In this document: positions 3,501 to 37,969 of the stretch, in pieces
Layout: each line of letters opens with the position of its first letter
Numbering within the stretch: position 1 is the first letter of the stretch
Origin: Candidatus Gastranaerophilales bacterium
GTDB lineage: Bacteria; Cyanobacteriota; Vampirovibrionia; Gastranaerophilales; Gastranaerophilaceae
Assembly (NCBI GenBank): GCA_023665105.1
Contig: JAMPEO010000001.1
Span: forward strand, 1 to 37,969
DNA length: 37,969 bases
Reading direction: 5' to 3'
The notes under the pieces: generated by a model
The model's database searches: none
What the model was told of the DNA's origin: nothing
What the model saw: only the letters and a program-made list of their open reading frames with translations
Made by a program: the position numbers and the translations under genes

Positions 3501-3675
3501 TAATAAATTTGTAATTGAGTGTGATGGTTTAAAAGATAATATAAAATCTAATGTTAAAAATATGAAAAAACAAGCTGTTATTGAACGTTGCGGATTCAAG
3601 GTTTGCAGGTTCTCTTATAGAGAATGGCTAAAATCTAGCGAAGCTTGTGTTAATAGGATTACGAATTATTTGTAA
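574..3675 (+). CDS. DUF4011-like N-terminus + SF1 (Upf1/DNA2-like, AAA_11/AAA_12) helicase + C-terminal DUF559/Vsr-fold-like endonuclease
   Basis: 1033-aa ORF. Helicase motifs: GPPGTGKS (Walker A, nt 1573-1596), IIDEASQ (motif II), VGDDKQLP, TAHTFQGDERDVILIS, NVAITRAK. A long Lys/Glu coiled-coil insertion lies between motifs I and II. The N-terminal segment YLIYGYMFLVGG...LTPLLYMPCKLER matches the DUF4011 pattern. The C-terminal FEREVADTLR...NADILV...FVIECDG resembles DUF559-type nucleases. Confidence 0.9.
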   Translation: MLQEATRAINSAFNNSFVKKLSLYLHDCVREEVKSSTFRNLKSDKDNKWIFLKEDDKLFTSDIDYLKLDGSDSKLTELMIQSELNQKEKYLIYGYMFLVGGNSKNRKKNEFLTPLLYMPCKLERNGVNINCMLTDEFLSLNTGAIASLMKKNDNEEEMEQFIEGLLDVVPSLPITEEKMEIFLTTLKSIIPDIEIALDHSSDIDEDNISKETSSKSDDNSSENENDRDEEIVVKTSSKIEKITLTSQCAIILTKRPSVTAGVLHELTQIAEKPSGVYRETVLNVINEEYTQSKSVQIPQKTNDKFNPITPLSLSDSQASVVENIDTSKLVSVYGPPGTGKSQTIVNLVAHLIANGKTVLVASRMDKAVDVVADRLNELGAPYLALRAGRLNYQKQLSYQLQDLLSNKVDLDEDVENNVLVDVSDMEDLLNSVRDLEEKAEKIIKLEKEWTEVGQEIAEKKKVSGPSLYIRGKLKRSDIEQVKAIAEDMEKNLEKSGFFASVNNYTSINKLKKILQLPDFELTQGNVLKLNEELELADIICRAKDIEEEIREMGNIHVISEKIRTLKKKQKKLVTDILINKRREALKGLMRDQVKRQRLFVHSKSLIERKKSLQNRLLEAEDFKPLLEAFPCWCVTTYAVSGSLPMKPGLFDVAIIDEASQCDIASCFPILYRAKRAVIVGDDKQLPHLSFLETAKEQSFMSKYEVADRYQLMWRFRTNSMFDIANYYSMKPVLLDEHFRSLPPIINFSNKEFYGNRIRVMKQDSPNEKVLEIVHVPDGKVDFDATRNLPEIEAVVKRVHEIIVDNEKDDPDNPITIGIISPFRAQVEQLKTSIGKVISDYMIQKHKIEIGTAHTFQGDERDVILISWAFANNSFPQSLTFLQKPNLFNVAITRAKKQMINFVSKDYTDLPDGLFRSYLSYIKEYEEKHEKIVNHELDENTYKNSFEREVADTLRSMDYDVQAGVEIGGVNADILVNNKFVIECDGLKDNIKSNVKNMKKQAVIERCGFKVCRFSYREWLKSSEACVNRITNYL

Positions 3676-5214: not shown

Positions 5215-6280
5215 ATGGATTTGAATGAATTAGAAGCACGAATAAACAAAAATAAGGAGTATCTTTGACCTTGATGCTTTGAGTTCTGAGTTGGCTGAGA
5301 TTGAAGAAAAACTTCAAACCTCTGATATTTGGTCAAATCAAAAATTGGCTTCTGAACTTGGTCAAAAATCAAGAGAGTTAAAAGAAACTATAGAAAATGC
5401 AAATCAATGGACAAGTATAATTGATGATGCAAAAATTGCTTATGAAATGGGTGATGAAGAACTTATTTCTGAAACAGAAATTCAACTTGCAGATTTAGAA
5501 AAAATGCTTGATAAGTTTGATTTTCAAAAGATGTTAAGCGGTGAATATGATGAGGCTGATGCTATCCTAAGTGTGAATTCAGGAGCAGGTGGTACTGATG
5601 CACAGGATTGGACCCAAATGTTACTGAGAATGTACACACGTTGGGCTGAGGCTAAGGGATGGAAAGTTGAGCTGCTTGATAAGTCAGATGGTGAAGAAGC
5701 AGGAATTAAGTCAGCAACAATAAAAATTACAGGCAAATATGCTTATGGTTATGCAAAGGCTGAAAAAGGTGTTCACAGACTTGTGAGAATTTCTCCTTTT
5801 AATGCTAATGGAAAACGTCAGACAAGTTTTGCTTCTTGCGAAGTTTCGCCGATAATTCCTGATTTTGAGAAAACTATTGTTATTCCGCCTGAGGATTTAG
5901 AAGTTGATACTATGCGTTCCGGTGGTGCCGGCGGTCAAAATGTTAATAAAGTAGAAACAGCTGTTAGGATTTTACATAAACCAACAGGTATTGTAGTCAA
6001 ATGTCAACAAGAACGTTCACAGCTGCAGAATAAAGAATATGCAATGCAAATTCTTGCATCAAAACTTTTAGAGATAAGACAAAATGAACATGAGAAAAAA
6101 CTGGCTGAGCTTAAAGGTGAAAACTTTGATATAAATTTTGGCTCACAGATTCGTTCTTATGTTTTTCATCCGTATAAGATGGTTAAAGACCATCGTACAG
6201 GGTTTGAGGTTGGAAATGTTGATTCTGTAATGGATGGCGAGTTAGATGGTTTTATTGAAAGTTATTTGAAATCTCGTTAG
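5215..6280 (+). CDS. prfB: peptide chain release factor 2, programmed +1 frameshift at 5263-5267
   Basis: ATG 5215 gives [17 protein letters not shown] then in-frame TGA (5266-5268). The site AAGGAG-TAT-CTT-TGA-C matches the canonical RF2 recoding site (SD-like element, CUU UGA C). The +1 frame continues [16 protein letters not shown]... into ORF 5279-6280, which carries SPF (RISPF) and GGQ ([10 protein letters not shown]). Confidence 0.92.
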
Positions 6281-20967: not shown

Positions 20968-22896
20968 TTGAACTCATTTAATATATTACGAAAAAGCTTA
21001 ATATTATTGTGTGCATTTTTTACACTAGCAACATCAGTGCACGCTGACGCAATTATCAACGGTGTTACGTCTGATTTTGGCTTGCCGTCTGCTTCTCCTG
21101 AAAATACTGATGGTACAATGCTTCTCCCTGATATTAAGGCTACCCCGTATATCAAAGATATTGAGATTTATGGTGTTAATGTTATAAAACCATCTGTTGT
21201 ATTGTCTCAAATGCAGATTCACAAAGGTGATCCGTTTGATGCTGATATGGTACAACGTGATTTAAAAACAATTTATCAGTTAGGTTTCTTTACTGAAAAG
21301 ATGCGTGCTATTCCTGTTGAAAATGCGGATGGTACAATCACATTAAAGATTTTATTAGAAGAAAATATTCCTGTTACGGACGTTACTATTGATGGGAATA
21401 CTGTTGTTTCATCAGAAGAGCTTATGCCTCTTGTAACCCCTCTTATCGGTAAACCCCAAAATATTGAGAATGTAAACGAAGTTATTGAGAAAATCAATGA
21501 ATGTTATGCTGCAAAAGGTTACATTCTTGCAAGAGTTGATACTATTTATGATGATCCTGACGGTACTATCAATATTGGTGTTAAAGAAGGTAAGATTAAC
21601 AAAATTCTTATTTCAGGAAACCAAAAAACCAAAGATTATGTTATTACCCGTAACATTTTGACAGAACCTGGTATGGTTTACAACGAAAACCAAATTAAAG
21701 AAGATTTGGTTCGATTGTATTCAACACAAGCATTCAAGGATGTTAACAGAAGTATTGATGTTTGTGCAGATGATCCTGACAGATATGATGTTACTATTAT
21801 GATTACTGAACAAAGAACAGCATCTATATCTATGGGTGGTGGTCTTGATTCAAGTACCGGTGTCTTCGGTTCATTAGGTATTAGTGATAACAACTTTAGA
21901 GGTTTAAATCAACGTGTATCTTTAAGTGGTTTGGTTGGTTCAGGTGTTATCATGAGTGATACAACTGTTAAAAATCACATGAATTTTCAGGCTGAGTTAA
22001 GCTTTTTCCAACCATACTTTTTGAATGCTGATACATCTTTGATGAGTAAAATCTTCTTTAGAGATTTCGGTAGTTACAATGTTCCGTTAGCTGTTGAAGA
22101 CAGAATTGGTATTGAAGCAAGTTTGTCACATAGGATGAAATACAATCCTCAATTATCTACTACATTGGCAGTAGGTGTTGAAAATATTGATGTTCGTGAA
22201 GGTGACAGAAGCAGAATTGTAAATATGTATCGTGCGAAACATGTTCCGATTTCTGAACGTGCAAAACAGTTGGAAGGCGGATTATTCTTAACAGTTAGTC
22301 CGGGATTGCGTTATGATTCAAGAGATTCAGCGCTTAACCCTAGAAACGGTGTGTTAGCTACTGCAAGATTCGACCAAGCTTTTGCACTTGATGAGTTTAA
22401 TAAAACTAATGGTAAATTGACAGGTATGATTAAAAGATTCTTCCCTGTTGCACGCAAGTCTTCATTATCACTTACTGCAAAAGCCGGCGGCAAAATATAT
22501 GGCGACAATATGCCTGAAGTTATGGCATATCGTTTAGGCGGACCTTATACTGTTAGAGGTTATAAAATCAATGGTGTAGGTACCGGTGATGCATTTGTGA
22601 TGGGTTCTGCTGAATTGGCTACTCCTGTTCTTTTCTTGGACAGACTTAAGGTTAACTTCTTCCAAAACCTACGTTTAACATTCTTTGTTGATGCAGGTAA
22701 AGTATTTGGTTCTTATCTGTCTGATAAATTGTATGACAGACCAATGGAAGCAGTTACTGCAGGTATTGGTTTGAAACTTTATATTCCTGGTGTAGGTCCG
22801 CTATCTGTTGATTATGGTATCCCTATTACCAGATGTGGTTCTTACGGAAACAAAAATGGTTACTTCACCTTTGGTGTAGGCGACATGATGTACTAA
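20968..22896 (+). CDS. bamA: outer membrane protein assembly factor BamA/Omp85 family
   Basis: TTG start, signal peptide ...ATSVHA-DA, POTRA-like repeats and a C-terminal Omp85 barrel (RGY, ...YFTFGVGDMMY terminal aromatic). At 642 aa it is shorter than five-POTRA proteobacterial BamA. Confidence 0.9.
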   Translation: MNSFNILRKSLILLCAFFTLATSVHADAIINGVTSDFGLPSASPENTDGTMLLPDIKATPYIKDIEIYGVNVIKPSVVLSQMQIHKGDPFDADMVQRDLKTIYQLGFFTEKMRAIPVENADGTITLKILLEENIPVTDVTIDGNTVVSSEELMPLVTPLIGKPQNIENVNEVIEKINECYAAKGYILARVDTIYDDPDGTINIGVKEGKINKILISGNQKTKDYVITRNILTEPGMVYNENQIKEDLVRLYSTQAFKDVNRSIDVCADDPDRYDVTIMITEQRTASISMGGGLDSSTGVFGSLGISDNNFRGLNQRVSLSGLVGSGVIMSDTTVKNHMNFQAELSFFQPYFLNADTSLMSKIFFRDFGSYNVPLAVEDRIGIEASLSHRMKYNPQLSTTLAVGVENIDVREGDRSRIVNMYRAKHVPISERAKQLEGGLFLTVSPGLRYDSRDSALNPRNGVLATARFDQAFALDEFNKTNGKLTGMIKRFFPVARKSSLSLTAKAGGKIYGDNMPEVMAYRLGGPYTVRGYKINGVGTGDAFVMGSAELATPVLFLDRLKVNFFQNLRLTFFVDAGKVFGSYLSDKLYDRPMEAVTAGIGLKLYIPGVGPLSVDYGIPITRCGSYGNKNGYFTFGVGDMMY

Positions 22897-22913
22897 TTTT
22901 TAGGAGGATAATT

Positions 22914-23363
22914 ATGAAAAAATTTACTGTAAGCTTATTAGTAGCTCTTTCAATGATAATGTTTTCAGGTGTTTCGTTTGCAGGTGGTCTTGGTTATGTA
23001 GACTATGAAAAAGTTATTGAAAACTGTTCATTTGCATTGAACGCTAAGAAAAAATTAGATTCAAAGGCTATTGAAATTAAACAATTTATGTTTGATAAAG
23101 AAAAAGAATATGAATCTATTCAATCTCCTGTTCAAAAACAAAATTTCCAAGATAAGGTTACTGCAGAACTTAAAACTAAACAAAACGATTATTTGAGAAT
23201 GCAAGCAAAAACTGAACAAGAAGTTTTTACAAAGATAAGAGATGTTGCAAAACAAGTAATGGTTGAACAAAAACTTGATGCTATTATTAGTGACAAAGCT
23301 GTGTTCTGTGGTGGTGTTGATGTAACCAATACGCTTATTGACAGATTAAAAGGTGTAAAATAG
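22914..23363 (+). CDS. skp: Skp/OmpH-family periplasmic chaperone
   Basis: ATG 22914 is preceded by TAGGAGG. Signal peptide MKKFTVSLLVALSMIMFSGVSFA, then a Lys/Glu/Gln coiled coil. Sits immediately downstream of bamA. The longer ORF start at 22833 overlaps bamA and was rejected. Confidence 0.8.
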   Translation: MKKFTVSLLVALSMIMFSGVSFAGGLGYVDYEKVIENCSFALNAKKKLDSKAIEIKQFMFDKEKEYESIQSPVQKQNFQDKVTAELKTKQNDYLRMQAKTEQEVFTKIRDVAKQVMVEQKLDAIISDKAVFCGGVDVTNTLIDRLKGVK

Positions 23364-23465
23364 GAGCAGGGGTAAATAAGGAGTAAATAAGATTTCTCCA
23401 TATCTAATACCTAAATAACTTTTACAGGTAAACTCTAACTTGAAATTTACAATGAAAGGGACGTA

Positions 23466-24926
23466 ATGTTTAGCAGAAATTTGGAATATATAATAAGAGA
23501 AGTTTCAACTGAAGATAGACAAGCTCTTCAAGATTTGCTTAATGAGATGTCATCTCAAGGTTGGGATTTATATACATTACACGAAGTTGAGATGGAAGAG
23601 GACTTTGTATATAGTTGTATTTTTATGCGTGAACGTCCTGCATCTGATGATAATGAAGTTTTTGACAAGGTTGTTAATGTGAAGAACTTCAAAGCTCAGA
23701 TGGAAAAAATGCTTTCTACTCAGCTTTCACCTTATGAAACTTGTAAAGATATAACCGCAAAAATTAGAGATCAAAAAGCCAGAGTTGCTAATATAAAATC
23801 TGAGATAGAAAAGGTTGACTGGTCTGACAGAGGTGCTTTGAATGAGCAAATGTCAGGGGCATTACGCAGATTGGAAGAGTTAAAGCAATCTTTGGTTAAG
23901 GAGATTTCTCCGGGTGTTATGTATTCAAGAATAGGAGAAGAAAAGTTTACTATAAACTTGGGAGAAGAGTTATTGGAGTTTGTCAGTCCTGATAATCAGA
24001 ATGATTTGTTATCAGAAACTGTTAAATCAAGACAGAAACTTACTGATGAGTTGGGTTATGTTATCCCAAGAATGGTTTTCCAAGATGATGATACACTAGA
24101 ACCTTATGAATTTAGTATCAAAGTTCACAATCTTGAGGTTTATAAATCTACTGCTGTGCCTGAACATATAGCATTCTTCAAGGATGATATCAATCTTAAA
24201 CGTAAGCCTGCGGGTACTATTGTCATAGATGATGTTATTACCGGAAAAGAGGTTTGGTGGATAGATGCTCAACAGGCTGAAGATTTCTGGGCAGATGGAT
24301 TTAATGCTGTTGAATATATTGCCAGAGCGATAGAATTTGTTTCTATTAAGTATGTTTCAGAATTGTTGGATTACAGTGATATTAACAGATATGTTACTTT
24401 GGTTGAACAACGTAATCCGTTTGTGATAAATAATATTATTCCTGATTTCATATCGTTGTCTGAACTTAAATACATTTTAATCAATTTGATTAGAGAAAGA
24501 ATTTCTATAAAGGATATTGATTATATATTTGAGAAGATAAACGATTTTTCTGATGAACTATCAAAAGATGGTTTGTTGGATAGAATAAGATTGTCGTTAT
24601 CAAAACATATTTCTCAACCTTATATTTCAGCAGAATCTACTCCTGTGATTGAGTTTTCCGGAGATACGTTGGATGAAATGTTCAAGCTGACAGAGGCTGA
24701 GGACGAAGCGATTATAAAGGTAGATGGAAAGGTTGCAGAAGATTTATCTAAAAAGATTGAGAAAGTAGCGAAAAAAGAGGAGTTAAAAGAAATTATCCTT
24801 GTTGTTCCTATGGAAATTAGACACATGACATTTGCAATTTTCTCTGAGTTTATAAATAATCTTACAGTTCTGGCACATGAGGAATTAACTTGTGAAACTA
24901 ATGTCAAAGTAATTGCGACTATATAG
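23466..24926 (+). CDS. soluble DUF4177-like + FlhA/SctV (FHIPEP) cytoplasmic-domain-like protein
   Basis: No TM segments. The N-terminus has LLNEMSSQGWDLYTLHEV (DUF4177 pattern). After a coiled coil, INLGEELLEFV...SRQKLTDELGYVIPRMVFQDDDTLEPYEFSIKVHNLEV and LSELKYILINLIRERISIKDIDYIFEKI parallel, from memory, FlhA LELGYGLIPLVD...IRKKFAQEMGF..P.V.IRDN..L.P..Y.I..KGVE and LQ.VLQNLL.E.VSIRD..TI.E. Confidence 0.8.
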   Translation: MFSRNLEYIIREVSTEDRQALQDLLNEMSSQGWDLYTLHEVEMEEDFVYSCIFMRERPASDDNEVFDKVVNVKNFKAQMEKMLSTQLSPYETCKDITAKIRDQKARVANIKSEIEKVDWSDRGALNEQMSGALRRLEELKQSLVKEISPGVMYSRIGEEKFTINLGEELLEFVSPDNQNDLLSETVKSRQKLTDELGYVIPRMVFQDDDTLEPYEFSIKVHNLEVYKSTAVPEHIAFFKDDINLKRKPAGTIVIDDVITGKEVWWIDAQQAEDFWADGFNAVEYIARAIEFVSIKYVSELLDYSDINRYVTLVEQRNPFVINNIIPDFISLSELKYILINLIRERISIKDIDYIFEKINDFSDELSKDGLLDRIRLSLSKHISQPYISAESTPVIEFSGDTLDEMFKLTEAEDEAIIKVDGKVAEDLSKKIEKVAKKEELKEIILVVPMEIRHMTFAIFSEFINNLTVLAHEELTCETNVKVIATI

Positions 24927-25234: not shown

Positions 25235-25300
25235 ATGAACCTTCTGCAACCGTTTAAAACCCCTGCTATTACTGTCTTTGAAAACTTCGGGGGGGGGTAG
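25235..25300 (+). other. SD-preceded ATG leader (21 codons), out of frame with the autotransporter ORF because of the G9 tract
   Basis: GAGGA lies 7 nt before ATG 25235. The translation MNLLQPFKTPAITVFENFGGG stops at TAG 25298-25300. With G10 or G7 it would read on into VAKSLISGLLLLFLCVIISPCAFA-AESS.... Confidence 0.7.
25289..25297 (+). repeat. homopolymeric G9 tract (candidate slipped-strand phase-variation switch)
   Basis: Counted directly: ..aaaacttcGG GGGGGGGtag... It is the longest G/C homopolymer I noticed in this AT-rich window. Confidence 0.9.
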
Positions 25301-25323: not shown

Positions 25324-28300
25324 TTGCTCCTATTTTTGTGTGTTATTATATCTCCGTGTGCGTTTGCTGCCGAGTCGTCTTATACGAAACCGGATAATTA
25401 TACTTATGGTTCGAGGATTGAGGATACTTTAACTAACGATATAAGTAATGTAGTGTTTACTAATCTTTCATTCGGGAATGAAGGTGGAGCTATCCGAAAT
25501 ACACAAAATGCTAACGTGAATATCATAGCAGACTTTGTGGCTAACTATGCTCACACAGATGCTTATGCAGCTGGTGGCGGTGCAATTTATAATACCGGTA
25601 GTATTGGTAATATCTCAGGTAATTTTATAGAGAACTATGTTACAAGTTCTGTTCCGATAGAATTATCCGGTGGTGCTATCTATAATTCAGGCAGTAGTGC
25701 TGTTATGGGTAAACTCGAAAATGTTACTTTTCAAGGTAACTATATCAAAACTGCAACGAATTCTTTAGTTAGGGGCGGTGCTATTGCAAATATAGATACG
25801 AAATCTAACACTATTGGGAATATTAGCGGCAGTTTTATAGGTAACTATGCGGAAACCGGTAATGCAAATGCACAAGGTGGAGCTATTGCGAACCATTGGG
25901 CAAATTTGTCTACTATTACAAATTCTGAGTTTAAAGATAATTACGTTAGTACATTAAACGGTCAGGCTCATGGCGGTGCTATTTATAATAATAACTATAC
26001 TTATATGGATAGTATATCAAATACTCTTTTTGAGGGTAATCAGGCTGTAAGTAATACTAACGCACGTGGCGGTGCTATTTATAACAATAATTTTAATAAT
26101 AATTATGCAAATAAAGCCAAAAGTCTTATAGATGGTACATTTAAAGCCAATGTTGCTTATGGTGGTAATGAAGCACTTGGTGGTGCAATATGTAATGATA
26201 ATAATTCTTATATTGGCACTGTTAGCGGAGAATTTATTCAAAACACTTCTATTGCAACCGGTAGTTCAGGTTGGGCAGAAGGCGGTGCAATTTGGAACTC
26301 AAATAATTCAACCATTGTAAATATATTAGATGCTGCTTTTACAGAGAACCGTGTTCAAGCTGAAAATGCAAATGCACAAGGTGCTGCTATATATAACGGT
26401 GCTGATAGTACTATTCAAAATCTTATAGGTACTTTTACGAATAACAGAATATATAATTCTAAAAAGGCTCATGGTGGAGCAGTTTTTAATGCAGGAACTA
26501 TGGGTATAAATTATTCTGAATTTAGAGATAATACTGCCATTGGTTCAGAAGAATCTCAAGGCGGTGCTATCTATAATAGCGGTAGTATGACACTTAGAAA
26601 TACAAGTTTTTATAATAACCGTGCTTATGTTACTAATGCTGATAATTCAGTTGCGGGTGGTGCTATTTATTCTAAATCTGATATTACTGTTTTAGCTGAT
26701 GGTGGTGTATCAGAGTTTTCCGGTAATATGACTGTATCCGGAACTAGTGGTTACAAAAGAGCTATTTATATTGATAATGCTTCTGCAACTTTAACACTAG
26801 AAGCTCGTAATGGTGGCGAAATTATTTTGCGTGACCATATTGATGGAGCTTCCGGTTATAACGTTACTATAACAGGTGATTATACCGGTACAGTTAATTT
26901 ATATAGTTATATAAATGATGCACATGTTTTTGTGAATAATGTTAAAGTCAACTTTAGTGATGATAGTATTAAAGGTAATGTATTTCAATCTTTCTCGTCA
27001 TTAGATAATGCTTCATATTCTTTTGATGTAGATTTGTCTAATGGTGTAGCTGATACTATTACTGCAGTAAATAGTTCTAGTGGTATTGTCAGAATAGATT
27101 CACTCAATTTTATCGGAGAGTCTTCTTCTCCTGTGGTTGTACAAATTTTAAATGTGCCTTACAAGGCAAGTTATGCACGTTTGTCTTTGAATTCCATCAA
27201 TTTTACCACTCAACTTGATGATACAATTACTAATGAAACCGTTTTAACAGGAAAACAAGTTGTACTTGCTACAACAAATACTACGTATGACTCTATCCGA
27301 ATTACCGGTAAAGTTTATGATACTTTAAAAGAGTTAAACCAAAAAACTACAACAAACGAAAGAAATTTTAACTTTGTTAATATAGCAACTTATACCGTTC
27401 GTGAAGATTTAGGTACGACTTCTTCCGGAACACTAAATATCAACGGTATGGTTGATGGTAATAAAAAATCAACTATTGATTTTAATAAAAATTCAGGTTT
27501 TCAGCTTAATATCAGCGGAAGAAATCTTAATGTATCAAATGTGAAATTTACAAATGCAGTATCTGATAACGAGCGTGGTTCTGTTATCAATATGCAAAAT
27601 ACTTCAACAGCAGAGTTTACAAATGTAGATTTTGTAAACAATCATTCTATAAATTCCGGTGATGCTCTTGGTTCAGCTGTTTCAGTGTCTAATGGTTCAA
27701 GAATAACAAGTCTTACCGGAAGTTTTGTTGGTAATGTTTCAAGTGCTGACGGTTACTATATTGAAGGTGGTGCTCTCTGGAATTCCAATTCAGGATATAT
27801 TGATAATATAGTAGCAGATTTCGTAGAAAATTCTGCCATTGGTAATGCTGATGTTAATGGTGGTGCTGTTTATAACAATTATTCTGATATTCAAAGAATA
27901 GAGGGTGATTTTATAAAAAATAGTGCTCAAGGTATGCACGTAAAAGGTGGTGCTATATATAATACAAATCTTGCACGTATCAATTATATTGAAGGTTTAT
28001 TCAAAGAAAATAGTGCCAGCGGTAGTGCAGCTACTTATGGCGGTGCTATATATAATGATAATGGTTATTTGCCTGCTATTACAAATTCTTCCTTTATAGG
28101 AAATTATGCTCATGCTGATAGTGAGACTGCTCAAGGTGGTGCTATTTATACTGCTGCTAATATTAAGATTATTGCAGATAATGGTATTTCAGAATTTACT
28201 GGTAATTATTCTCAAATTGGTGATGGTGAAAAGAATTATAACGCTATATACGTTAATAATTCTGATGCAACATTGTATCTTGAGCCTAGTAATAATGGTA

Positions 28301-31300
28301 CAATTATTTTAAATGATAATATCGACGGTGCACAAGGTTATACCGTTGCAGTTGCAGGTAATTCTACCGGTACTCTAGCTTTGAATAATGATATTAAAAA
28401 TGCTAAGGTTTATATCAATACCGTTAATGTCAGTACTGCAAATAATTCCATACGTGATTATACATTCTATATGTTGAGTTCTAATGCTAACGCAAAATAT
28501 AATATTGATATAGATTTAGACAATGTCGGTTCTGCCGATAGGTTTGTTACAACAGGTCTATCAACAGGAACGGTAACTTTGAATTCTATCAATTTTATGA
28601 ATAATATCGGATACGTTGATGAATGTATTATTCAAGTAATTGATAACAAAAATACCTCATCTACACTTAAACTTGCACTTGGTAATAATATTGTTTCATT
28701 GCCTGATGCCGGCAATACTATTAGTAATGAAACCGTTATTGCTGATGTAGGGGGTATTACTCTTGCAACTACAAATACAACAGATGATTCAATCAAAGTT
28801 ACAGGTAAAATATATGATAATCTTTCATACATAAATAAGAAAACATCTGAAGAAGAACGCAATTTTAATTTTGTTAATACTTCTACTTATACTGTGAAAG
28901 AAAATCTTGGCACAGCCTCTACAGGTGTTCTTAATATCAATGGTAAAACAAACGGAGATGCGAAGTCTACTATTGATATGAATGAACATTCAGGTTTTGT
29001 TGTCAAAGGTAATACTATCTTAAATCTTACAGATGTTAATATTGTTAATGCAAAAGCATCAACTGAACGCGGTTCTGTTATTACGGTTTCTGATGGTAAT
29101 TCCCAAAAAGTTAATATTCAAAATGTTACTTTTTCTGATAACAAAATTGAATCAGATGGTGATGGCTTCGGTGCTGTAATATCAAATCAGGGCTATGGGA
29201 TAATAGGCAATATTAACGGAAAATTTGAGAACAATAGTGTTAATGCCAAAGGTTATTGGGCTGAAGGCGGAGCAATTTGGAATTCAAATGTAAGTTCTAT
29301 TCAAAATATTGATGCAGACTTCATTGCTAACTCTGTTGTTGGTGCCAGTGATACTACAGCTAAGGGTGGTGCTATTTATGTAAATTATTACAGTAGTATT
29401 GAAAATATAAACGCAAATATTATTGAAAATAATATTTCAGGTAAAACAGCTCTTGGTGGTGCAATATTTAATGGTTCTGCCAGCAATATTGGCACTATAA
29501 CCGGCACGGTTGTTGGAAACTATGCTATTGGTACAGAAACTGCAAGGGGCGGTGCTATTTATAATGAAGGCTCATCTATTGATGCTTTAAAAAATATTGT
29601 ATTCAAAGATAACTACGTTAAGAGTGAAACAGGCACTGCACAAGGTGGTGCAATATATACTGATTCCAATTTAAAAGTACTTGCTGATAATGGTGTTTCT
29701 GCATTTACAGGAAACTATAGTCAAAATGGTGAAAATATTGATAATAATGCTATTTATGTTGGTAGCTCAAATGCAACTGTTACCTTAGAAATAAAAAATA
29801 AAGGTGTAATTGTTTTTGATGACAATATAAAAGGACAAAAAGGATATTCTGTTAATGTTACAGGGGATAATTCCGGTGCGGTATTATTGAATAATACCGT
29901 TGAAAATGCAAATGTTAATATATCAAATGCAAAAGTTATTCTAAATGATGAAACATTACTGAATAATGAATCGTCATTAGCTTTAAATAATGGTACATTA
30001 ACAGTTCTAAATAATAAAATTGGCACAATGGAGCTTGAAACACTTACATTGACAGGCAAAAATAACCATATATCTCTTGATATTGACCCTAAAAATGCAG
30101 CGTCTGATAGTATAGTTGCAAATAATTATAATATAGCTGAGGATGCAGTATTGTACGTGGATGACATCAATATTATGTCTGTAACTACAGATAAAAATAT
30201 GCGTATAAAATTTGCAGACGAAGCACTTGCCGGTAATGTTGTTTATAACGGTCATAAAACTGCAATAACAACACCGATATTTAAATATAATGTTGCTTAT
30301 CTTGTAGATAAAGATAATAGCGGTTACTTCGCATTTGGTCGTGGTTCAAGCGGTGATTGGAGAAGCTACAACCCTGCTGTATTATCATCTGCTGTAGTTG
30401 CACAAGCTGGTGCTTACACAACTATGGTTCAAACTTTCAATCATGCATTCTCACATTCAGATACGTATATGAATATTCCTAATAGTGAAAGATTATCATA
30501 TAAAAATAAAGGAAAATACGCTGTTGCCGGTGATACTAATATGCCGGGTGTATTTTCGCCGTTAATGACAAATGATAAGGATGCAGGATTCTGGGTTAAA
30601 CCTTATGCAACATTTGAAAATATTCCGTTGAAAAATGGACCAAAAGTTCAGAATATCAACTATGGAACATTGATTGGATATGACTCACCGTTAGAAAGTC
30701 TTAAAAACGGCTGGGATAGAGTTATGACATATTACTTTGGTTACAATGGCTCTACTCAGCATTTTACAGGTGTTGATTCATATCAAAACGGTGGGCTTGC
30801 CGGTGTAACCATGAGTTTATATAAAGGTAAATTCTTTAATGCGACAACAGTTTCTGCCGGTGCTACTGTAGGTGAAATATCTACTATGTATGGCAGTGAA
30901 ACATTCACTGCTTTGATGGCTGGTATTGCTAACAAAACCGGATATAATCTTGAATTTAAAGAAGGTAGATTTATTATTCAACCGTCTATGTTCTTATCTT
31001 ATGCATTTGTTAATACTTTTGATTATACAAATGCTGCAGGAGTTAGAATTGATAGTGATCCGCTTAGTGTAATTCAAGTTGCACCAGGACTTAAGTTTAT
31101 TGGTAATACTAAAAACGGCTGGCAGCCATATTTCGCAATAAGTATGGTTTGGAATATTACTTGTGATTCTACTGTTAGAGCTAATAATGTTCAAATGCCT
31201 TCTATGAGTATTGATCCGTTTGTCCAATATGGTTTAGGCTTGCAAAAACGTGTTTCTGATAGATTTACGGGATTTATTCAGGCTATGATTCAAAACGGAG

Positions 31301-31359
31301 GACGTAATGGCGTTGCATTAACTGCAGGTTTCCGATGGGCAATCGGCAGGGGTAAATAA
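25324..31359 (+). CDS. giant type Va autotransporter with Pmp-like (GGAI[YWF]N / FxxN) repeats in three ~500-aa modules plus a C-terminal beta-barrel
   Basis: 2011-aa ORF with dozens of GGAIYN/GGAIWN repeats. The anchor ADxGVSxFxGN recurs at nt 26695, 28174 and 29683. The C-terminal ~300 aa has alternating autotransporter-barrel features (GFWVKPYATFENIPL...ALTAGFRW). The true start is probably ATG 25235, reached through the G tract. TTG 25324 has no SD and gives a signal peptide with no charged n-region. Confidence 0.9.
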   Translation: MLLFLCVIISPCAFAAESSYTKPDNYTYGSRIEDTLTNDISNVVFTNLSFGNEGGAIRNTQNANVNIIADFVANYAHTDAYAAGGGAIYNTGSIGNISGNFIENYVTSSVPIELSGGAIYNSGSSAVMGKLENVTFQGNYIKTATNSLVRGGAIANIDTKSNTIGNISGSFIGNYAETGNANAQGGAIANHWANLSTITNSEFKDNYVSTLNGQAHGGAIYNNNYTYMDSISNTLFEGNQAVSNTNARGGAIYNNNFNNNYANKAKSLIDGTFKANVAYGGNEALGGAICNDNNSYIGTVSGEFIQNTSIATGSSGWAEGGAIWNSNNSTIVNILDAAFTENRVQAENANAQGAAIYNGADSTIQNLIGTFTNNRIYNSKKAHGGAVFNAGTMGINYSEFRDNTAIGSEESQGGAIYNSGSMTLRNTSFYNNRAYVTNADNSVAGGAIYSKSDITVLADGGVSEFSGNMTVSGTSGYKRAIYIDNASATLTLEARNGGEIILRDHIDGASGYNVTITGDYTGTVNLYSYINDAHVFVNNVKVNFSDDSIKGNVFQSFSSLDNASYSFDVDLSNGVADTITAVNSSSGIVRIDSLNFIGESSSPVVVQILNVPYKASYARLSLNSINFTTQLDDTITNETVLTGKQVVLATTNTTYDSIRITGKVYDTLKELNQKTTTNERNFNFVNIATYTVREDLGTTSSGTLNINGMVDGNKKSTIDFNKNSGFQLNISGRNLNVSNVKFTNAVSDNERGSVINMQNTSTAEFTNVDFVNNHSINSGDALGSAVSVSNGSRITSLTGSFVGNVSSADGYYIEGGALWNSNSGYIDNIVADFVENSAIGNADVNGGAVYNNYSDIQRIEGDFIKNSAQGMHVKGGAIYNTNLARINYIEGLFKENSASGSAATYGGAIYNDNGYLPAITNSSFIGNYAHADSETAQGGAIYTAANIKIIADNGISEFTGNYSQIGDGEKNYNAIYVNNSDATLYLEPSNNGTIILNDNIDGAQGYTVAVAGNSTGTLALNNDIKNAKVYINTVNVSTANNSIRDYTFYMLSSNANAKYNIDIDLDNVGSADRFVTTGLSTGTVTLNSINFMNNIGYVDECIIQVIDNKNTSSTLKLALGNNIVSLPDAGNTISNETVIADVGGITLATTNTTDDSIKVTGKIYDNLSYINKKTSEEERNFNFVNTSTYTVKENLGTASTGVLNINGKTNGDAKSTIDMNEHSGFVVKGNTILNLTDVNIVNAKASTERGSVITVSDGNSQKVNIQNVTFSDNKIESDGDGFGAVISNQGYGIIGNINGKFENNSVNAKGYWAEGGAIWNSNVSSIQNIDADFIANSVVGASDTTAKGGAIYVNYYSSIENINANIIENNISGKTALGGAIFNGSASNIGTITGTVVGNYAIGTETARGGAIYNEGSSIDALKNIVFKDNYVKSETGTAQGGAIYTDSNLKVLADNGVSAFTGNYSQNGENIDNNAIYVGSSNATVTLEIKNKGVIVFDDNIKGQKGYSVNVTGDNSGAVLLNNTVENANVNISNAKVILNDETLLNNESSLALNNGTLTVLNNKIGTMELETLTLTGKNNHISLDIDPKNAASDSIVANNYNIAEDAVLYVDDINIMSVTTDKNMRIKFADEALAGNVVYNGHKTAITTPIFKYNVAYLVDKDNSGYFAFGRGSSGDWRSYNPAVLSSAVVAQAGAYTTMVQTFNHAFSHSDTYMNIPNSERLSYKNKGKYAVAGDTNMPGVFSPLMTNDKDAGFWVKPYATFENIPLKNGPKVQNINYGTLIGYDSPLESLKNGWDRVMTYYFGYNGSTQHFTGVDSYQNGGLAGVTMSLYKGKFFNATTVSAGATVGEISTMYGSETFTALMAGIANKTGYNLEFKEGRFIIQPSMFLSYAFVNTFDYTNAAGVRIDSDPLSVIQVAPGLKFIGNTKNGWQPYFAISMVWNITCDSTVRANNVQMPSMSIDPFVQYGLGLQKRVSDRFTGFIQAMIQNGGRNGVALTAGFRWAIGRGK

Positions 31360-32642: not shown

Positions 32643-35600
32643 ATGAAAAAGTTATTGTTTTGTTTGATATATTTGTGTTTTGTTCTGTCATCAGTGAGTG
32701 CAAAAACTGTTAATATTTCTGACTTTTATGATTTTATGGATAATACCGATAGCAATACATCTATGGTTTTAAAAAACGATATAAATATGTTATCAAACTG
32801 GTCATTTGCTAATAATATATCTATCAATGGCTCAAACAATGTATTTAACAATAACGGATTTCGCCTTACTAACAACGGAATATTAAACTTATCTTCCATA
32901 ATTTTTAATGATACAAGTTTATCTTCTTTCGGAAATATTACTAATAATCATTCTCTTAATGCACTGAAAGGGGATGTGAAATTTGGATCAGGCGTTATAG
33001 GGGATGGAACCTTTAATGTTAAGGGTGCACAAGTTGTTTTCGGAAAAGATTCTTCACTTTCTCAATCACAAGTAAATATCTCAAAAGGGCATCTTGCTAT
33101 TTTTGCTGATAGTTTAAAGACAGAAAATGTTGTTAATAATGCAAAAAATGGACTTTATCTTGATAATGGAGAACTTAAAAATGTAAATATTTCAGGCAAA
33201 GGTTCTACTTATATTCAAGGACATGTAGTTGTCGATAAAGATTCTTTAATAAGTCAAAAAATTACTATTCCTGTTTTGTCAACTACTACAGAAGAGACTG
33301 TAAAACAATATTGGGCTAATGACGATGGATACAGGTATTTAATTACTGATATGGATGTATATTTAGCGGAACATCCTGAATGTAATCCTGATTCAGACTT
33401 GGAAGTAACAGAAATTATTAAAGAATATAGTTCTCCAAAAGCTTCTTTAACTGCTAGTGCTAATAGTTTGCTTGGTACTGTTGTGAATAATGCAGGTCTT
33501 ACGTTATTAGATGGTACTATTACTAAAGCTATTAGTGGTACAGGCGGCTTAACCATAGATGGTATTGTTGAGAATATTGCTAAAATTGCTCAAAATTCGA
33601 TTGTGGTTATGGATTCAGCTTCTTTCAAAACTAATGCCGGTTTGTTAGATAAAAATATCACTTTTGTTAATTTAGGAGATTTGTATTTAACAGGCGGCAA
33701 TTTATCTTGTGATATTACCGGTGATGGAATGACGTATATTGAGGGTGCTGTTGGTAACAAAACTTATATCAACTCACCATTGACTATTTTGCCCAAAGGT
33801 TTGTTATTGTCCAATGCTTCTTTGATATATGAAGACATAGTAAATAACGGAATTTTGCAGTTATCTGCCGGAACATTTGATAAAATTGATGAAGGAAATC
33901 CTATTAAGATAACAGGTTCAGGTCATACCCAAATTGTGGGAAAAGTAGTCGTAAATTCTGATATTGAACAAAGTATAGATGTAACTAAAAAAGGTACACT
34001 TAAAGTATGTCCTAATAGAATAAAAGGTAATGTTATCAATGAAGGTACTTTAAATTATATAGGCGGTTATTCTAATTATTTTGTACAAAACAGTAATAAA
34101 ATGAATATTGAAAAAACTATTGTTGCAAAAGATATTGATAACTGGGCTAATTTAACTATTAAAGATTCTGTTGTGACAGGTGTGGCTGATGATTTGGGGC
34201 TTATTGAAAATTATAAAAATTTAACATTCGTTTCGTCAAACTATGAGAAAAATGTGATTGAAAATAATGTTGGAGTTGTAATATACAATTCTGTGATGGT
34301 TGATGGCAAAAAGGTTTATACCGGAAATCTTACTGTTTCAGGTAGTGCAGAGTTTAAAAACAATGTTAATCAAAATGGTAATGGCGGTGTGATTTTTAAT
34401 GATAATAACGGGTCTAAATATGCTCCTAAAGTAGTTCTCAAAGGCAATTATGACAAGGTTTGGCTTAATGATGCAAGTTCATTTACTGCTAATGATGCTG
34501 CAAATGGCGGGGCTATTTATAATAATGGCGGGGTAGTTGATTCTAAACGATATGTGTTTAAAAATAATAATGCTCAACGTGGCGGAGCGATTTATAATAA
34601 TGAAAATTCAACACTAAAACTTACAACATCTGCTTTTAGCGAAAATAATGGTACAGAACAAGGTGGTGCTATTTATAATTCCGGAAGTTTGATTGATAAA
34701 AATGGCTTGTTTATGTCAAATACAGCTAATAATGGTGGTGCTGTTTATAACAATGGAAATACAGTTTTTAATGGGACTCAATTTTATAAAAATGGCGGAA
34801 CAATAGCTGATGATTGTAAAACGGTGGAGGGTGATGTTGCTCAAAAAGGTGGTGCTATCTCTAATAGCGGAATATTGACTCTTAAAAATACACAAATTGG
34901 AAAAATTAGTTATTCTTTTCCTAGTCATATTATGAACAATGTTTTGGTTTATCCGTATTATCCATCAAACCCTGTGAAAATAGTTCCTTACGGAAATGTT
35001 GCTGAATTGGGTGGCGGCTTATATAATTCAGGTATTGCTAATTTAGCAGGTACTGATTTTTCTAATAATTTAGCAACAGAAAATGGCGGTGCCGTTTATA
35101 ATAATATAATGGGAGTTTTAACTGTAAAATCTTCCGGATTTTATAGTAATATTGCATCTCAAAAAGGTGGAGCTATATATAATGAAAATGATATAAATGT
35201 TGTTTCATCGACCTTTGACGGTAATAGTGCAGTGTTTGGTGGGGCATTATATACAAACAATAATATGAATTCTAAACAAGCAAAAATTGATAAAAGCGAT
35301 TTCTGTCATAATAAATCTACTGAAAAAGGCGGGGCTATTTACATTAATACCGGTAATGTTTTAATTAAAAATTCTAAAATAGGTTCGATTATGAACGGAG
35401 GTAATACTGCTGAAAATAGCGGCGGTGGAATTTTTAATAATGGAACGGATACGCAAATTATCTCCTCATATTTTGCAAAAAACTCTGCGAAAACTGGCGG
35501 AGATATATATAATACTGGTAAAATGACTATTTCAAAGACCTCTTTTGGCTATAGTCCAATACCTAAGGGTGGTAAATATTTTATTTCAATTAGAATATAC

Positions 35601-37969
35601 CCGATATATGCTCCAATTATTAGGTATCCTTATGCTGATGAAAACACAACATTTGATTATAATGGTGAAATTTATTATCCTATAAGATTTCCATTATATG
35701 ATAATTATGAGATACGTGATGGTTCTACAGCAGAGCAAGGCGGCTCAATTTTCAATCAAGGCGAGATTACTATAACTTCATCAAAATTTGGGTATTCTGC
35801 TGCATTGGAAGGTGCTGCAATTTATAATGATACAACAGGCAAATTAACTATAAACAGTACAACATTTAATTATAATGATGCTCTTGTAAGATCTAAAAAA
35901 GATAATCAACAACAAGAAGATGCAGAAGACGACTTGAATCTTGTTACTAAAGGTGGTGCCATCTATAATAAAGGTTATATTGAAATCAAAAATAAAACTA
36001 AGTTTGTTTCAAATACTGCTGAGTCAGGACAAGGTGGAGCTATTTATAACGATAATTCAGGTAGTATAGATATTTTCAATACAACATTTAATAAAAACAA
36101 TGCTCAACAAGGCGGAGCTGTTTATAATACAGGTACTTTAACAACTGATAACAAAACCAAGTTTACTTCTAATATAGCTGAAAAAGGTGGTGCTTTGTAT
36201 TTAGGTGGAGGTTCGGCTACTACTATAAATGGAACAGAATTTAAGTCTAACCAAGCTTCATATAATGATGGTTCTACTTATGAAGGAGAATCTATTGATT
36301 CTGTTCGTCCGGTAGTGAATGCGAATGGTGGTGCAATTTATGCTGATAATGCTACATTAGAAATAAATAAAGCTAAATTTACAAGTAACACTGCTAAATC
36401 AGGTTTCAATTATGAATTTAATAATTATGGTGATGAAGAAATTGGTTATACTTCTACTATCCAAAACGAAGGTGCCGGATGTGGTGGTGCAATTTATTTG
36501 ACAGGGATTACATCTGCTAAAATTGATGGAACTACTTTTAAATCCAATTCTGCAAATTATGCAGGTGGTGCAATTTATAACCAATCATTAGATAATATTG
36601 TGATTTCTAACTCTACTTTTACTTCTAATTCTGCAATGCAAAACATTTCTACTGAATATATTGATAATGATGGCAATAGTTCAAAAGCAAATGCTTATAA
36701 TGGTAAGGGTGGTGCTATATACAACGAGGGAAATCTGAAACTTACCAACGTTACTTTTACTTCAAATAAGGCAGGTGATAAGGGTGGTGCTGTTTATAAT
36801 AACTCATCAGATGTATTAACTATAGAAAATTGTAAATTTAATAAGAATACTGCGAAAAGTGTTTTCAAAGATAATGAAACTTATAGTTATTATGATGAAG
36901 AATCTGGTAAAACTATTCAATCTGATGTTTCCGGTACTAGTTATATGGGTTCAGGCGGTGCTATATATAACGAAAATGGAACAATCAATATTACAAATAC
37001 GACATTCACTTCTAATCAGGCTGGGGAAGATAGTGGCGGTGGAGCTATATATAATGAAAACGGTACGATAAATATCTATGAAGGTACTAAGTTTACTAGC
37101 AATTCTGCGAAAGTTAAATATACTGATACTTGGAAAGAAAATGGAAAAACTTATAAAGAATCTAAGTATATTGGTTATGGCGGAGCTATATTTAATTCAC
37201 AAGGATTTTTAAATATTCAAGGTTCAAAAGATGCGATGGTTTTATTTAAGTCTAATCAGGCAGGAGATGCCGGTGGTGCGATTTATAATGATGACGGTCA
37301 ATTAAATATCAATTATGCAAAATTTGAATCTAATAAATCCGTAGGTGTTGGTGGTGCTTTATTTTTAAATCACCTTGATTCTGAAACGGCAACAACTCAT
37401 ACAATTTCAAATTCGGTGTTTAGTAAAAATTCTGCGGTAAGTGGTGGAGCTATCTTTTTAGCCGGCGGTCATCTGCAGTTAGCTGATACAAGTTTCACAA
37501 ATAACACTGCAAAGGAGACAGGTGGTGCTATTTATGCAGGATACGGTAGTATTGTTGATATTTTTGCAATCAATAGTGATGTTATATTTAAGGGTAACAA
37601 AGCAAATGGTAAATCAAATGCTATTCATTTAGAAGAAGCTACTCTCAATCTTCAAGCAAATGATGGTAGAACAATTTCAATATTTGATAATATTAGCGGT
37701 ACAGGGCTTATAACCAAAAAAGGAAATATATACATAGCAAATGAAGCTAAACTTGAAGAAGGTTCAGATATTACTATTAAAAGTAATTCCGGTTCATTAG
37801 TTTTCGGAAATGAAAATAATATGAACGGGTTGTCTATTCAATTATCAGGTGAAAGTGATATCATTACAGCAAACAATTCTGTTCGTACCTTATCATTGAA
37901 CAAACTAACCTTATCTGACAACACAACGACCAACGTGTCAATCGACATGGACTTACAAAGCGGCACAAG
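32643..37969 (+). CDS. second giant Pmp-repeat (GGAIYN) passenger protein, 3'-partial (runs off the window), presumed autotransporter
   Basis: Not in the ORF track, which is consistent with no stop inside the window. ATG 32643 has SD AGAGGA 6 nt upstream. Signal peptide MKKLLFCLIYLCFVLSSVSA-KT. My manual translation of frame 3 stays open to 37969 and gives many GGAIYN/GGAVYN/GGALY units, ending ...TTTNVSIDMDLQSGT. This resembles the NHISLDIDPKNAASD region of the first protein. Confidence 0.85.
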   Translation, partial: MKKLLFCLIYLCFVLSSVSAKTVNISDFYDFMDNTDSNTSMVLKNDINMLSNWSFANNISINGSNNVFNNNGFRLTNNGILNLSSIIFNDTSLSSFGNITNNHSLNALKGDVKFGSGVIGDGTFNVKGAQVVFGKDSSLSQSQVNISKGHLAIFADSLKTENVVNNAKNGLYLDNGELKNVNISGKGSTYIQGHVVVDKDSLISQKITIPVLSTTTEETVKQYWANDDGYRYLITDMDVYLAEHPECNPDSDLEVTEIIKEYSSPKASLTASANSLLGTVVNNAGLTLLDGTITKAISGTGGLTIDGIVENIAKIAQNSIVVMDSASFKTNAGLLDKNITFVNLGDLYLTGGNLSCDITGDGMTYIEGAVGNKTYINSPLTILPKGLLLSNASLIYEDIVNNGILQLSAGTFDKIDEGNPIKITGSGHTQIVGKVVVNSDIEQSIDVTKKGTLKVCPNRIKGNVINEGTLNYIGGYSNYFVQNSNKMNIEKTIVAKDIDNWANLTIKDSVVTGVADDLGLIENYKNLTFVSSNYEKNVIENNVGVVIYNSVMVDGKKVYTGNLTVSGSAEFKNNVNQNGNGGVIFNDNNGSKYAPKVVLKGNYDKVWLNDASSFTANDAANGGAIYNNGGVVDSKRYVFKNNNAQRGGAIYNNENSTLKLTTSAFSENNGTEQGGAIYNSGSLIDKNGLFMSNTANNGGAVYNNGNTVFNGTQFYKNGGTIADDCKTVEGDVAQKGGAISNSGILTLKNTQIGKISYSFPSHIMNNVLVYPYYPSNPVKIVPYGNVAELGGGLYNSGIANLAGTDFSNNLATENGGAVYNNIMGVLTVKSSGFYSNIASQKGGAIYNENDINVVSSTFDGNSAVFGGALYTNNNMNSKQAKIDKSDFCHNKSTEKGGAIYINTGNVLIKNSKIGSIMNGGNTAENSGGGIFNNGTDTQIISSYFAKNSAKTGGDIYNTGKMTISKTSFGYSPIPKGGKYFISIRIYPIYAPIIRYPYADENTTFDYNGEIYYPIRFPLYDNYEIRDGSTAEQGGSIFNQGEITITSSKFGYSAALEGAAIYNDTTGKLTINSTTFNYNDALVRSKKDNQQQEDAEDDLNLVTKGGAIYNKGYIEIKNKTKFVSNTAESGQGGAIYNDNSGSIDIFNTTFNKNNAQQGGAVYNTGTLTTDNKTKFTSNIAEKGGALYLGGGSATTINGTEFKSNQASYNDGSTYEGESIDSVRPVVNANGGAIYADNATLEINKAKFTSNTAKSGFNYEFNNYGDEEIGYTSTIQNEGAGCGGAIYLTGITSAKIDGTTFKSNSANYAGGAIYNQSLDNIVISNSTFTSNSAMQNISTEYIDNDGNSSKANAYNGKGGAIYNEGNLKLTNVTFTSNKAGDKGGAVYNNSSDVLTIENCKFNKNTAKSVFKDNETYSYYDEESGKTIQSDVSGTSYMGSGGAIYNENGTINITNTTFTSNQAGEDSGGGAIYNENGTINIYEGTKFTSNSAKVKYTDTWKENGKTYKESKYIGYGGAIFNSQGFLNIQGSKDAMVLFKSNQAGDAGGAIYNDDGQLNINYAKFESNKSVGVGGALFLNHLDSETATTHTISNSVFSKNSAVSGGAIFLAGGHLQLADTSFTNNTAKETGGAIYAGYGSIVDIFAINSDVIFKGNKANGKSNAIHLEEATLNLQANDGRTISIFDNISGTGLITKKGNIYIANEAKLEEGSDITIKSNSGSLVFGNENNMNGLSIQLSGESDIITANNSVRTLSLNKLTLSDNTTTNVSIDMDLQSGT

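Follow-up and report, generated by a model that had tools for sequence, protein, structure and literature searches.

We analysed a 37,969-nt stretch of a Candidatus Gastranaerophilales bacterium (contig JAMPEO010000001.1), hereafter the window, focusing on an open reading frame (ORF) of 486 amino acids (aa) that encodes a soluble relative of the cytoplasmic part of the flagellar export-gate protein FlhA. We refer to this ORF as the flhAc-only gene; it lies downstream of bamA and skp (Table 1). A first-pass annotation, made from the sequence, had described a stand-alone soluble FlhA/SctV cytoplasmic-domain protein at this position. Both the position and the length of the ORF were as given, and the identification was supported by profile, Protein Data Bank (PDB) and Foldseek matches. 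We found that the protein is a lineage-specific soluble paralog of the FlhA linker (FlhA_L) and cytoplasmic domain (FlhA_C), which coexists with a complete FlhA, has an altered chaperone pocket and is encoded outside flagellar operons.

PF00771 (FHIPEP) was the sole Pfam family with a significant match to the protein (E=1.7e-45). The match aligns aa 151-477 with profile positions 323-655 of 657 and is thus confined to the cytoplasmic half of the profile. The same C-terminal region was matched by the two NCBIfam equivalog models, at 136 bits for FlhA (TIGR01398; cut-off 772) and 79 bits for SctV (TIGR01399; cut-off 692). When PDB sequences were searched with phmmer, only FlhA/SctV cytoplasmic domains were matched (B. 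subtilis 3MIX, E=7e-17; Salmonella 6CH1, E=2e-14). We also built a full-length AlphaFold2 (AF2) model on 19 family members, which reached a mean predicted local distance difference test score (pLDDT) of 65 and mostly 70-90 over much of the C-domain. Foldseek aligned this model to the C-domains of FlhA, CdsV, MxiA, InvA, YscV and SsaV over ~337 columns, with 6CH1 as the best match (E=3.9e-19).

The absence of a transmembrane (TM) region was likewise confirmed. The maximum 19-residue Kyte-Doolittle hydropathy of the flhAc-only protein is 1.37, compared to 76 windows above 1.6 in the canonical FlhA of the same lineage. Pfam coverage and hydropathy together place the 8-TM export-gate domain with its FHIPEP motif among the missing parts, and the N-domain of E. 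coli FlhA, used as a tblastn query, found no match in the gene. The protein is acidic, with 93 Asp and Glu against 58 Lys and Arg residues. This family, found widely in one bacterial class, itself runs against the premise that FlhA_C is always tethered to a TM gate. Database entries for its members read 'flagellar biosynthesis protein FlhA', 'FHIPEP family type III secretion protein' or 'hypothetical'. A role as a defence-system component was dropped, since PADLOC returned no match.

Next to the added N-terminal parts, the protein carries a putative linker and all four FlhA_C subdomains (D1-D4). The linker motif is SPGVMYSRIG, compared to NPNRMYERLG in canonical melainabacterial FlhA, and both follow the pattern P..MY.R[IL]G. 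In FlhA, the nonameric ring is stabilised by linker residues 351, 354 and 356, which also take part in binding FliJ; the chaperone-docking dimple is formed by Asp-456 and Phe-459 together with Thr-490 (Salmonella numbering) and also takes Trp-354 from the neighbouring linker (PMC8166844). We mapped residues to Salmonella/E. coli numbering in 26 short sequences and six canonical ones (five melainabacterial plus E. coli). In the window protein, R189 corresponds to Arg-391 and D256 to Asp-456, while T259 occupies the position of Phe/Tyr-459 and R287 that of Thr-490. Arg-391 was kept in all 26 short members and is invariant in the canonical sequences; Asp-456 was kept in 24 of the 26 and in all six canonical sequences. 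Position 459 is Thr in 21 of the 26, compared to Phe or Tyr in all six canonical sequences, and position 490 is Arg or Lys in 20 of the 26, compared to an invariant Thr. The GYxLI motif is not retained in the short family. Judged from this alignment, the chaperone dimple is remodelled family-wide, with two of its three residues replaced. The segments that best match the canonical parent correspond to E. coli residues 391-405 in D1 (10/15 identities) and 545-559 in D3 (12/15, including VSIKDI), at 26% identity overall. These data suggest that the fold and core, and probably the linker too, have been maintained while the client pocket was altered. The retained linker and D1/D3 core motifs would be compatible with ring formation.

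In place of the TM domain, the protein has an N-terminal module and a helical region. Modelled separately, the N-terminus forms a confident beta-alpha-beta-beta unit at aa 6-56 (pLDDT ~84). An acidic spacer of low model confidence follows (aa ~58-71), and then a conserved helix, FKAQMEKML, and an invariant PYETC motif. The coiled coil noted in the first-pass annotation corresponds to two long helices at aa 93-146, which may form a helical hairpin or a coiled coil. The region aa 61-146 aligns opposite the TM domain of canonical FlhA.

The N-terminal module had also been assigned to DUF4177 (PF13783), a small domain of ~55 aa which it resembles in size and in a G-W-(D/E)-L motif. This assignment did not reach significance. 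The window protein showed no PF13783 match even at E<=10, and 10 of 19 relatives gave sub-threshold matches only (best E=0.013). A profile of aa 1-107, run exhaustively against 1.84 billion representative sequences, retrieved 81 proteins, all of them members or fragments of the flhAc-only family, and no free-standing DUF4177 protein. About 18 of the 81 are full-length (476-507 aa); the rest are short and probably fragments. Foldseek with the N-terminal model gave nothing significant: its best matches were generic ACT/NikR-like half-folds (E=0.037), in a comparison with PDB structures that included none of DUF4177. We therefore dropped the idea of a DUF4177 fusion, for which profile, reverse-profile and fold searches all lacked a significant match. 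An NCBIfam 'Sp36_fam' match at aa 7-42 (E=0.008) fell under its cut-off and was disregarded. By sequence the N-terminal module appears to be family-specific and weakly DUF4177-like, and 'DUF4177-like' is at best a lead.

To determine the distribution of the family, we scanned one genome per GTDB species with N-module-specific patterns and fetched 80 of the matching genomes as loci. At least 190 species-level genomes encode an flhAc-only relative. The fetched loci derive from Gastranaerophilales/Melainabacteria gut metagenome-assembled genomes and a few mislabelled bins. Loci L034, L035, L043, L054 and L076 come from species-representative bins that bear the labels Anaerovoracaceae, Alistipes senegalensis, Methanobacteriaceae, Muribaculaceae and Acinetobacter; all carry the gene on Gastranaerophilales-type contigs, and contamination or mislabelling is the probable cause. 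Homologs named 'Candidatus Gastranaerophilales' or 'Cyanobacteria bacterium RUI128' make up more than 100 clusters of 485-490 aa at 52-93% identity. Searching with the most divergent members recovered environmental proteins of the same 481-511-aa architecture, among them 'Melainabacteria bacterium RIFOXYA12_FULL_32', 'Vampirovibrionia bacterium' and 'Cyanobacteria bacterium SIG30', and every named match of this search falls within Melainabacteria/Vampirovibrionia.

All three regions of the protein are conserved in the alignment. Within the window's clade, pairwise dN/dS (omega) comes to ~0.05-0.09 in each of them (N-module, helical region and C-domain), values that are approximate since dS is saturated. 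With one architecture shared by at least 190 species and omega this low, the gene is judged to be functional and under strong purifying selection, and not a remnant. The same two observations rule out that it is a pseudogene or the 3' fragment of a disrupted flhA, the latter considered in the first-pass annotation.

We found canonical flhA in metagenome loci fetched around a melainabacterial FlgE-like gene. Canonical melainabacterial FlhA has 700 aa and matches FHIPEP from position 2 to 656 of 657 (E=3.5e-218). The protein is abundant and strongly conserved: the top 120 clusters are 696-701 aa long and 89-100% identical, some of them on contigs of up to 1.25 Mb. By comparison, the soluble paralog shows 48-93% identity within the same order; the genome sets are unmatched and the comparison is indicative only, and the paralog may be evolving much faster than its canonical parent. 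In Melainabacteria, a fliE-fliF-(fliG)-fliH-flhA operon ends with canonical flhA (L112, 6955-12985; L170-L179), which does not follow flhB. At locus L071, a convergent flagellin gene comes after flhB. Since canonical FlhA is full-length, a split FlhA, in which the flhAc-only protein would supply the ring to a TM-only FlhA, was excluded.

The two genes occur together. Locus L038, with bamA-skp-flhAc, and locus L179, with fliE...flhA, overlap by 7,746 bp at 100% identity and are therefore one contig of 24,428 bp, which carries the flhAc-only gene as well as fliE-fliF-fliG-fliH-flhA with a 700-aa FlhA. The first-pass annotation had proposed that the protein could act on an export gate encoded elsewhere in the genome, as its decoy or regulator. 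A full-length flhA was found on the same contig in this relative, which is 52% identical, and because of this coexistence the decoy or regulator idea stays viable. Further contigs combine the flhAc-only gene with flhB and flagellin (L071) or with FliK-like and FlgE-like genes (L004, L090 and L103), and in L181 a flagellin gene lies 3 kb away. Di Rienzi et al. 2013 listed, without comment, two 'flhA' genes among the flagellar genes common to all four founding genomes, one of them after fliH, where canonical flhA lies in the operons described above. We infer that the second is the flhAc-only paralog.

Sequence comparison also points to the origin of the gene. With blastp, the paralog matched melainabacterial FlhA at 137 bits, aligning aa 125-486 with residues 318-688, from just past the last TM helix; E. 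coli FlhA was matched at 74 bits. Because the closest relative is the FlhA of its own lineage and the linker motif is lineage-specific, we conclude from sequence that the flhAc-only gene arose by duplication of flhA inside Vampirovibrionia, with replacement of the membrane domain.

Next, we compared the neighbourhood of the gene between species. In 79 of the 80 species loci, bamA and skp precede the flhAc-only gene; the 80th locus is too short upstream. The order holds across 48-93% identity. In 37 loci the gene directly adjoins skp, with a gap of 8-187 nt, and in 42 of the 79 a ~1.3-kb pyrimidine-nucleoside phosphorylase gene lies between the two (e.g. L001, 8683-10011). Within this insert class, the phosphorylase stop codon overlaps the start codon of the flhAc-only gene. 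The outer flanks vary, with recF found only in the clade of at least 63% identity and the adhesin only near the window. The bamA-skp linkage is missing from four environmental or divergent loci. It is thus a real order-wide operon feature, neither universal nor uninterrupted in the family.

In the window, no terminator turned up between skp and the flhAc-only gene in a consensus scan, no sigma-28-type promoter was seen by eye in the 102-nt spacer, and a sigma-70 pattern scan gave a result no richer than shuffled sequence. The hairpin behind the stop codon is likely the end of the operon. The window holds no other flagellar or type III secretion system (T3SS) gene, in agreement with the first-pass annotation. 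That annotation had further placed the gene in a neighbourhood of bamA-skp and adhesin genes and in a context of outer-membrane biogenesis and type V secretion. The first part stood for bamA and skp, which lie directly upstream, and a 2011-aa adhesin-like ORF lies downstream, but the adhesin neighbour is not conserved, and a functional link to the adjacent adhesin or autotransporter was dropped for this reason. The evidence for a role in outer-membrane sorting or type V secretion proved weak, the linkage being gut-only, interrupted in 42 of 79 loci and missing in environmental lineages. In our reading, the bamA-skp linkage reflects co-expression with envelope genes of the housekeeping kind and is no evidence that the protein has a role in type V secretion.

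Table 1 Features of the flhAc-only locus in the window.
Feature	Position	Strand	Basis
bamA (Omp85 with POTRA domains), first gene of the bamA-skp-flhAc block	20968..22896	+	Pfam; synteny
skp/ompH periplasmic chaperone, start at the signal-peptide Met	22911..23363	+	Pfam OmpH; 102 nt upstream of flhAc; synteny
Shine-Dalgarno-like AAAGGGA	23455..23461	+	Sequence read; 4 nt before ATG
flhAc-only gene (soluble FlhA-C paralog)	23466..24926, stop codon included	+	486 aa, ATG start; FHIPEP C-half; 481-511-aa orthologs; purifying selection
N-terminal alpha/beta module, aa 1-60	23466..23645	+	AF2 models: beta6-14, alpha18-30, beta34-42, beta47-56; invariant GWDLY motif
Spacer and helical region in place of the TM export-gate domain	23646..23903	+	Alignment; AF2 secondary structure; alignment to canonical FlhA
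FlhA linker (FlhA_L-like, aa ~147-160) and D1-D4 (aa ~160-486)	23904..24923	+	Pfam; PDB; Foldseek; residue mapping; blastp
Terminator-like hairpin with U-run, just 3' of the stop codon	24950..24984	+	RNA fold, dG -14.7 kcal/mol, z=-3.76

The paralog can be set against FlhA/SctV as defined by PF00771 and the structures 3A5I, 6CH1, 3MIX, 7AMY and 6WA6. It has homologous FlhA_L and D1-D4 parts with equivalents of Arg-391 and Asp-456 and the D3 core 'V(S/P)I(K/R)D', and melainabacterial FlhA is the nearest relative. In contrast to FlhA/SctV, it has no 8-TM gate and hence no means of proton or substrate conduction; it has gained the N-domain and helical hairpin, has lost GYxLI and carries replacements at two of three dimple residues. 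It is further set apart by its location outside flagellar operons, its ~27% identity to the FlhA_C of its own lineage and its scores below both equivalog cut-offs. With no TM domain, a low equivalog score, an altered dimple and a different operon context, the flhAc-only protein should not be filed as FlhA.

With about even confidence, we propose that the paralog is a cytoplasmic accessory or regulator of a flagellar-type T3SS. In the paralog, the 8-TM gate domain has been swapped for the small soluble alpha/beta domain and helical hairpin, with the flexible linker and four-domain part kept. The resulting protein would be unable to act as an export gate. Because it keeps the universally conserved cores of D1 (Arg-391 helix) and D3 (VSIKDI) together with a canonical-like linker, assembly with itself would be possible, as would docking to the ring of canonical FlhA_C or to FliJ/FliH-FliI. 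Binding of FliS/FlgN/FliT-type chaperone-substrate complexes in the canonical manner would not be expected, because the dimple is changed (aromatic 459 to Thr, Thr-490 to Arg/Lys). In the most economical model, the paralog would be a modulator or gatekeeper of the export gate, competing for its partners or re-routing them. In gut Gastranaerophilales its expression would come from the housekeeping bamA-skp operon and not from a flagellar operon. Soluble cytoplasmic modulators of chaperone-substrate access to the FlhA_C ring, the role proposed here, are known among antagonists and gatekeepers of the flagellar T3SS, such as C. jejuni FlaG (PMC11536152), and among injectisome gatekeepers; these share neither sequence nor fold with the paralog and are binders of the ring, not look-alikes of it.

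Several observations weigh against a role in flagellar export. The functional tie to the flagellar T3SS is argued from homology and co-occurrence only. In about 90 loci, not one flagellar gene adjoins the flhAc-only gene, and no enrichment of flagellar genes near the locus was found: they lie within 10 kb in about 8 of the ~90 loci, approximately as expected by chance. Published surveys report complete flagellar sets in ~25-33% of Gastranaerophilales genomes, compared to the presence of the gene in at least 190 species. Given this difference, many non-motile genomes have probably kept the paralog, and such genomes do retain some flagellar T3SS genes. The full-length AF2 model, moreover, is of moderate quality, as its mean pLDDT indicates.

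A different explanation is that an FlhA_C scaffold was exapted for cytoplasmic sorting or assembly independent of the flagellum, perhaps linked to the envelope, and that it persists in non-motile gut lineages. We regard this as possible but on the unlikely side. The constant bamA-skp-flhAc order amid varying outer flanks would fit such a role, as would the lack of a terminator before the gene and the hairpin after it, the overlapping start and stop codons in the insert class and the remodelled dimple. The gene is also never found within a flagellar operon, and its species range is far wider than the ~25% for which complete flagella are reported. However, the linkage is missing in environmental lineages of the same family and is interrupted by the phosphorylase gene in more than half of the gut loci, and together these two features look more like operon hitch-hiking than functional coupling. 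The paralog is cytoplasmic, while the sites of action of BamA and Skp are the outer membrane and the periplasm. Flagellar genes were present in every genome with more visible context, and even 'non-flagellated' Gastranaerophilales keep some flagellar T3SS genes (flhB, fliI and flgG), according to a published survey. We are doubtful, too, that the protein is a freed FlhA_C-type ring with a flagellum-independent role, co-regulated with outer-membrane biogenesis in gut Gastranaerophilales and kept there after flagellar loss.

Alternatively, the protein might form a second FlhA_C ring, docked non-covalently on the export gate through its N-domain and hairpin and specific for other substrate-chaperone pairs, by analogy with FlhX. 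FlhX, known from the Helicobacter literature, is a precedent for a free-standing gate cytoplasmic domain: like the paralog, it is soluble and is encoded apart from, and coexists with, the full-length gene in Helicobacter/Campylobacterota and others. It differs in that it is derived from FlhB, is much smaller, has no added N-module and occurs in other lineages, and the relationship is one of analogy, not homology. We found no homology of the paralog to FlhB, as every profile and structure match was to FlhA/SctV. The full linker and D1-D4 are retained with the most conserved D1/D3 core motifs, the N-module is as conserved as the C-domain, as expected of a docking module, and a changed dimple would suit a different client set. 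Nevertheless, an intact C-domain and an intact D/Y/T dimple are already present in the lineage's own canonical FlhA, we found no evidence for docking, and the N-module has no detectable relative that points to a binding partner. We thus consider a docked second ring improbable.

Finally, a decaying remnant or mis-called flhA fragment without function, as the database names and a score far below the FlhA equivalog cut-off might suggest, deserves next to no credence given the intact reading frames and full-length architecture across species, the low omega in all three regions, the gene's own start codon and ribosome-binding site with skp directly upstream, and the intact canonical flhA on the same contig in a relative.

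Full-text literature searches turned up no account of a soluble or truncated FlhA paralog. In all flagellar and injectisome type III systems, substrate sorting centres on FlhA_C/SctV_C, which has been examined only as a tethered part of the membrane gate. If the paralog modulates the gate, it would represent a new class of endogenous T3SS regulators, a paralog mimic of the docking ring, and a natural test case for how linker and dimple interact and how the ring assembles. Should it work independently of the flagellum, it would be the first exaptation of a T3SS substrate-docking ring outside a type III machine. Annotation as 'FlhA' or 'FHIPEP' may inflate the counts of 'retained flagellar genes' in gut Melainabacteria, where flagellar loss or partial retention is debated. 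Although the organisms are uncultured, the small, soluble and acidic protein makes recombinant biochemistry feasible.

The window as a whole has a GC content of ~33% and features of an anaerobic diderm, with a HydABC-type FeFe hydrogenase, bamA, skp and other housekeeping genes. At 574-3675 (+), a 1033-aa SF1 helicase (AAA_11/AAA_12) carries a fused MTES_1575-type restriction-endonuclease-like domain at its C-terminus, and a tetratricopeptide repeat (TPR) protein comes next; this may be a defence or repair module. The prfB gene (RF2; 5215-6280, +), whose ORF0 starts at about 5215, contains a classical programmed +1 frameshift site, AAGGAG, 3 nt, CTT TGA C, at 5263-5269. The adhesin-like ORF downstream of the flhAc-only gene (25324-31359, 2011 aa) has no Pfam match at 1e-5. 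About 27 nt upstream of it lies a G9 homopolymer (25289-25297), the sole G/C run of at least 8 in the window, which might act as a slipped-strand switch for phase variation of the adhesin. Another giant adhesin-like ORF (~32643-37969, +; signal peptide MKKLLFCLIYLCFVLSSVSA...) exceeds 1786 aa and runs past the 3' end of the window, so that two very large surface proteins flank fba.

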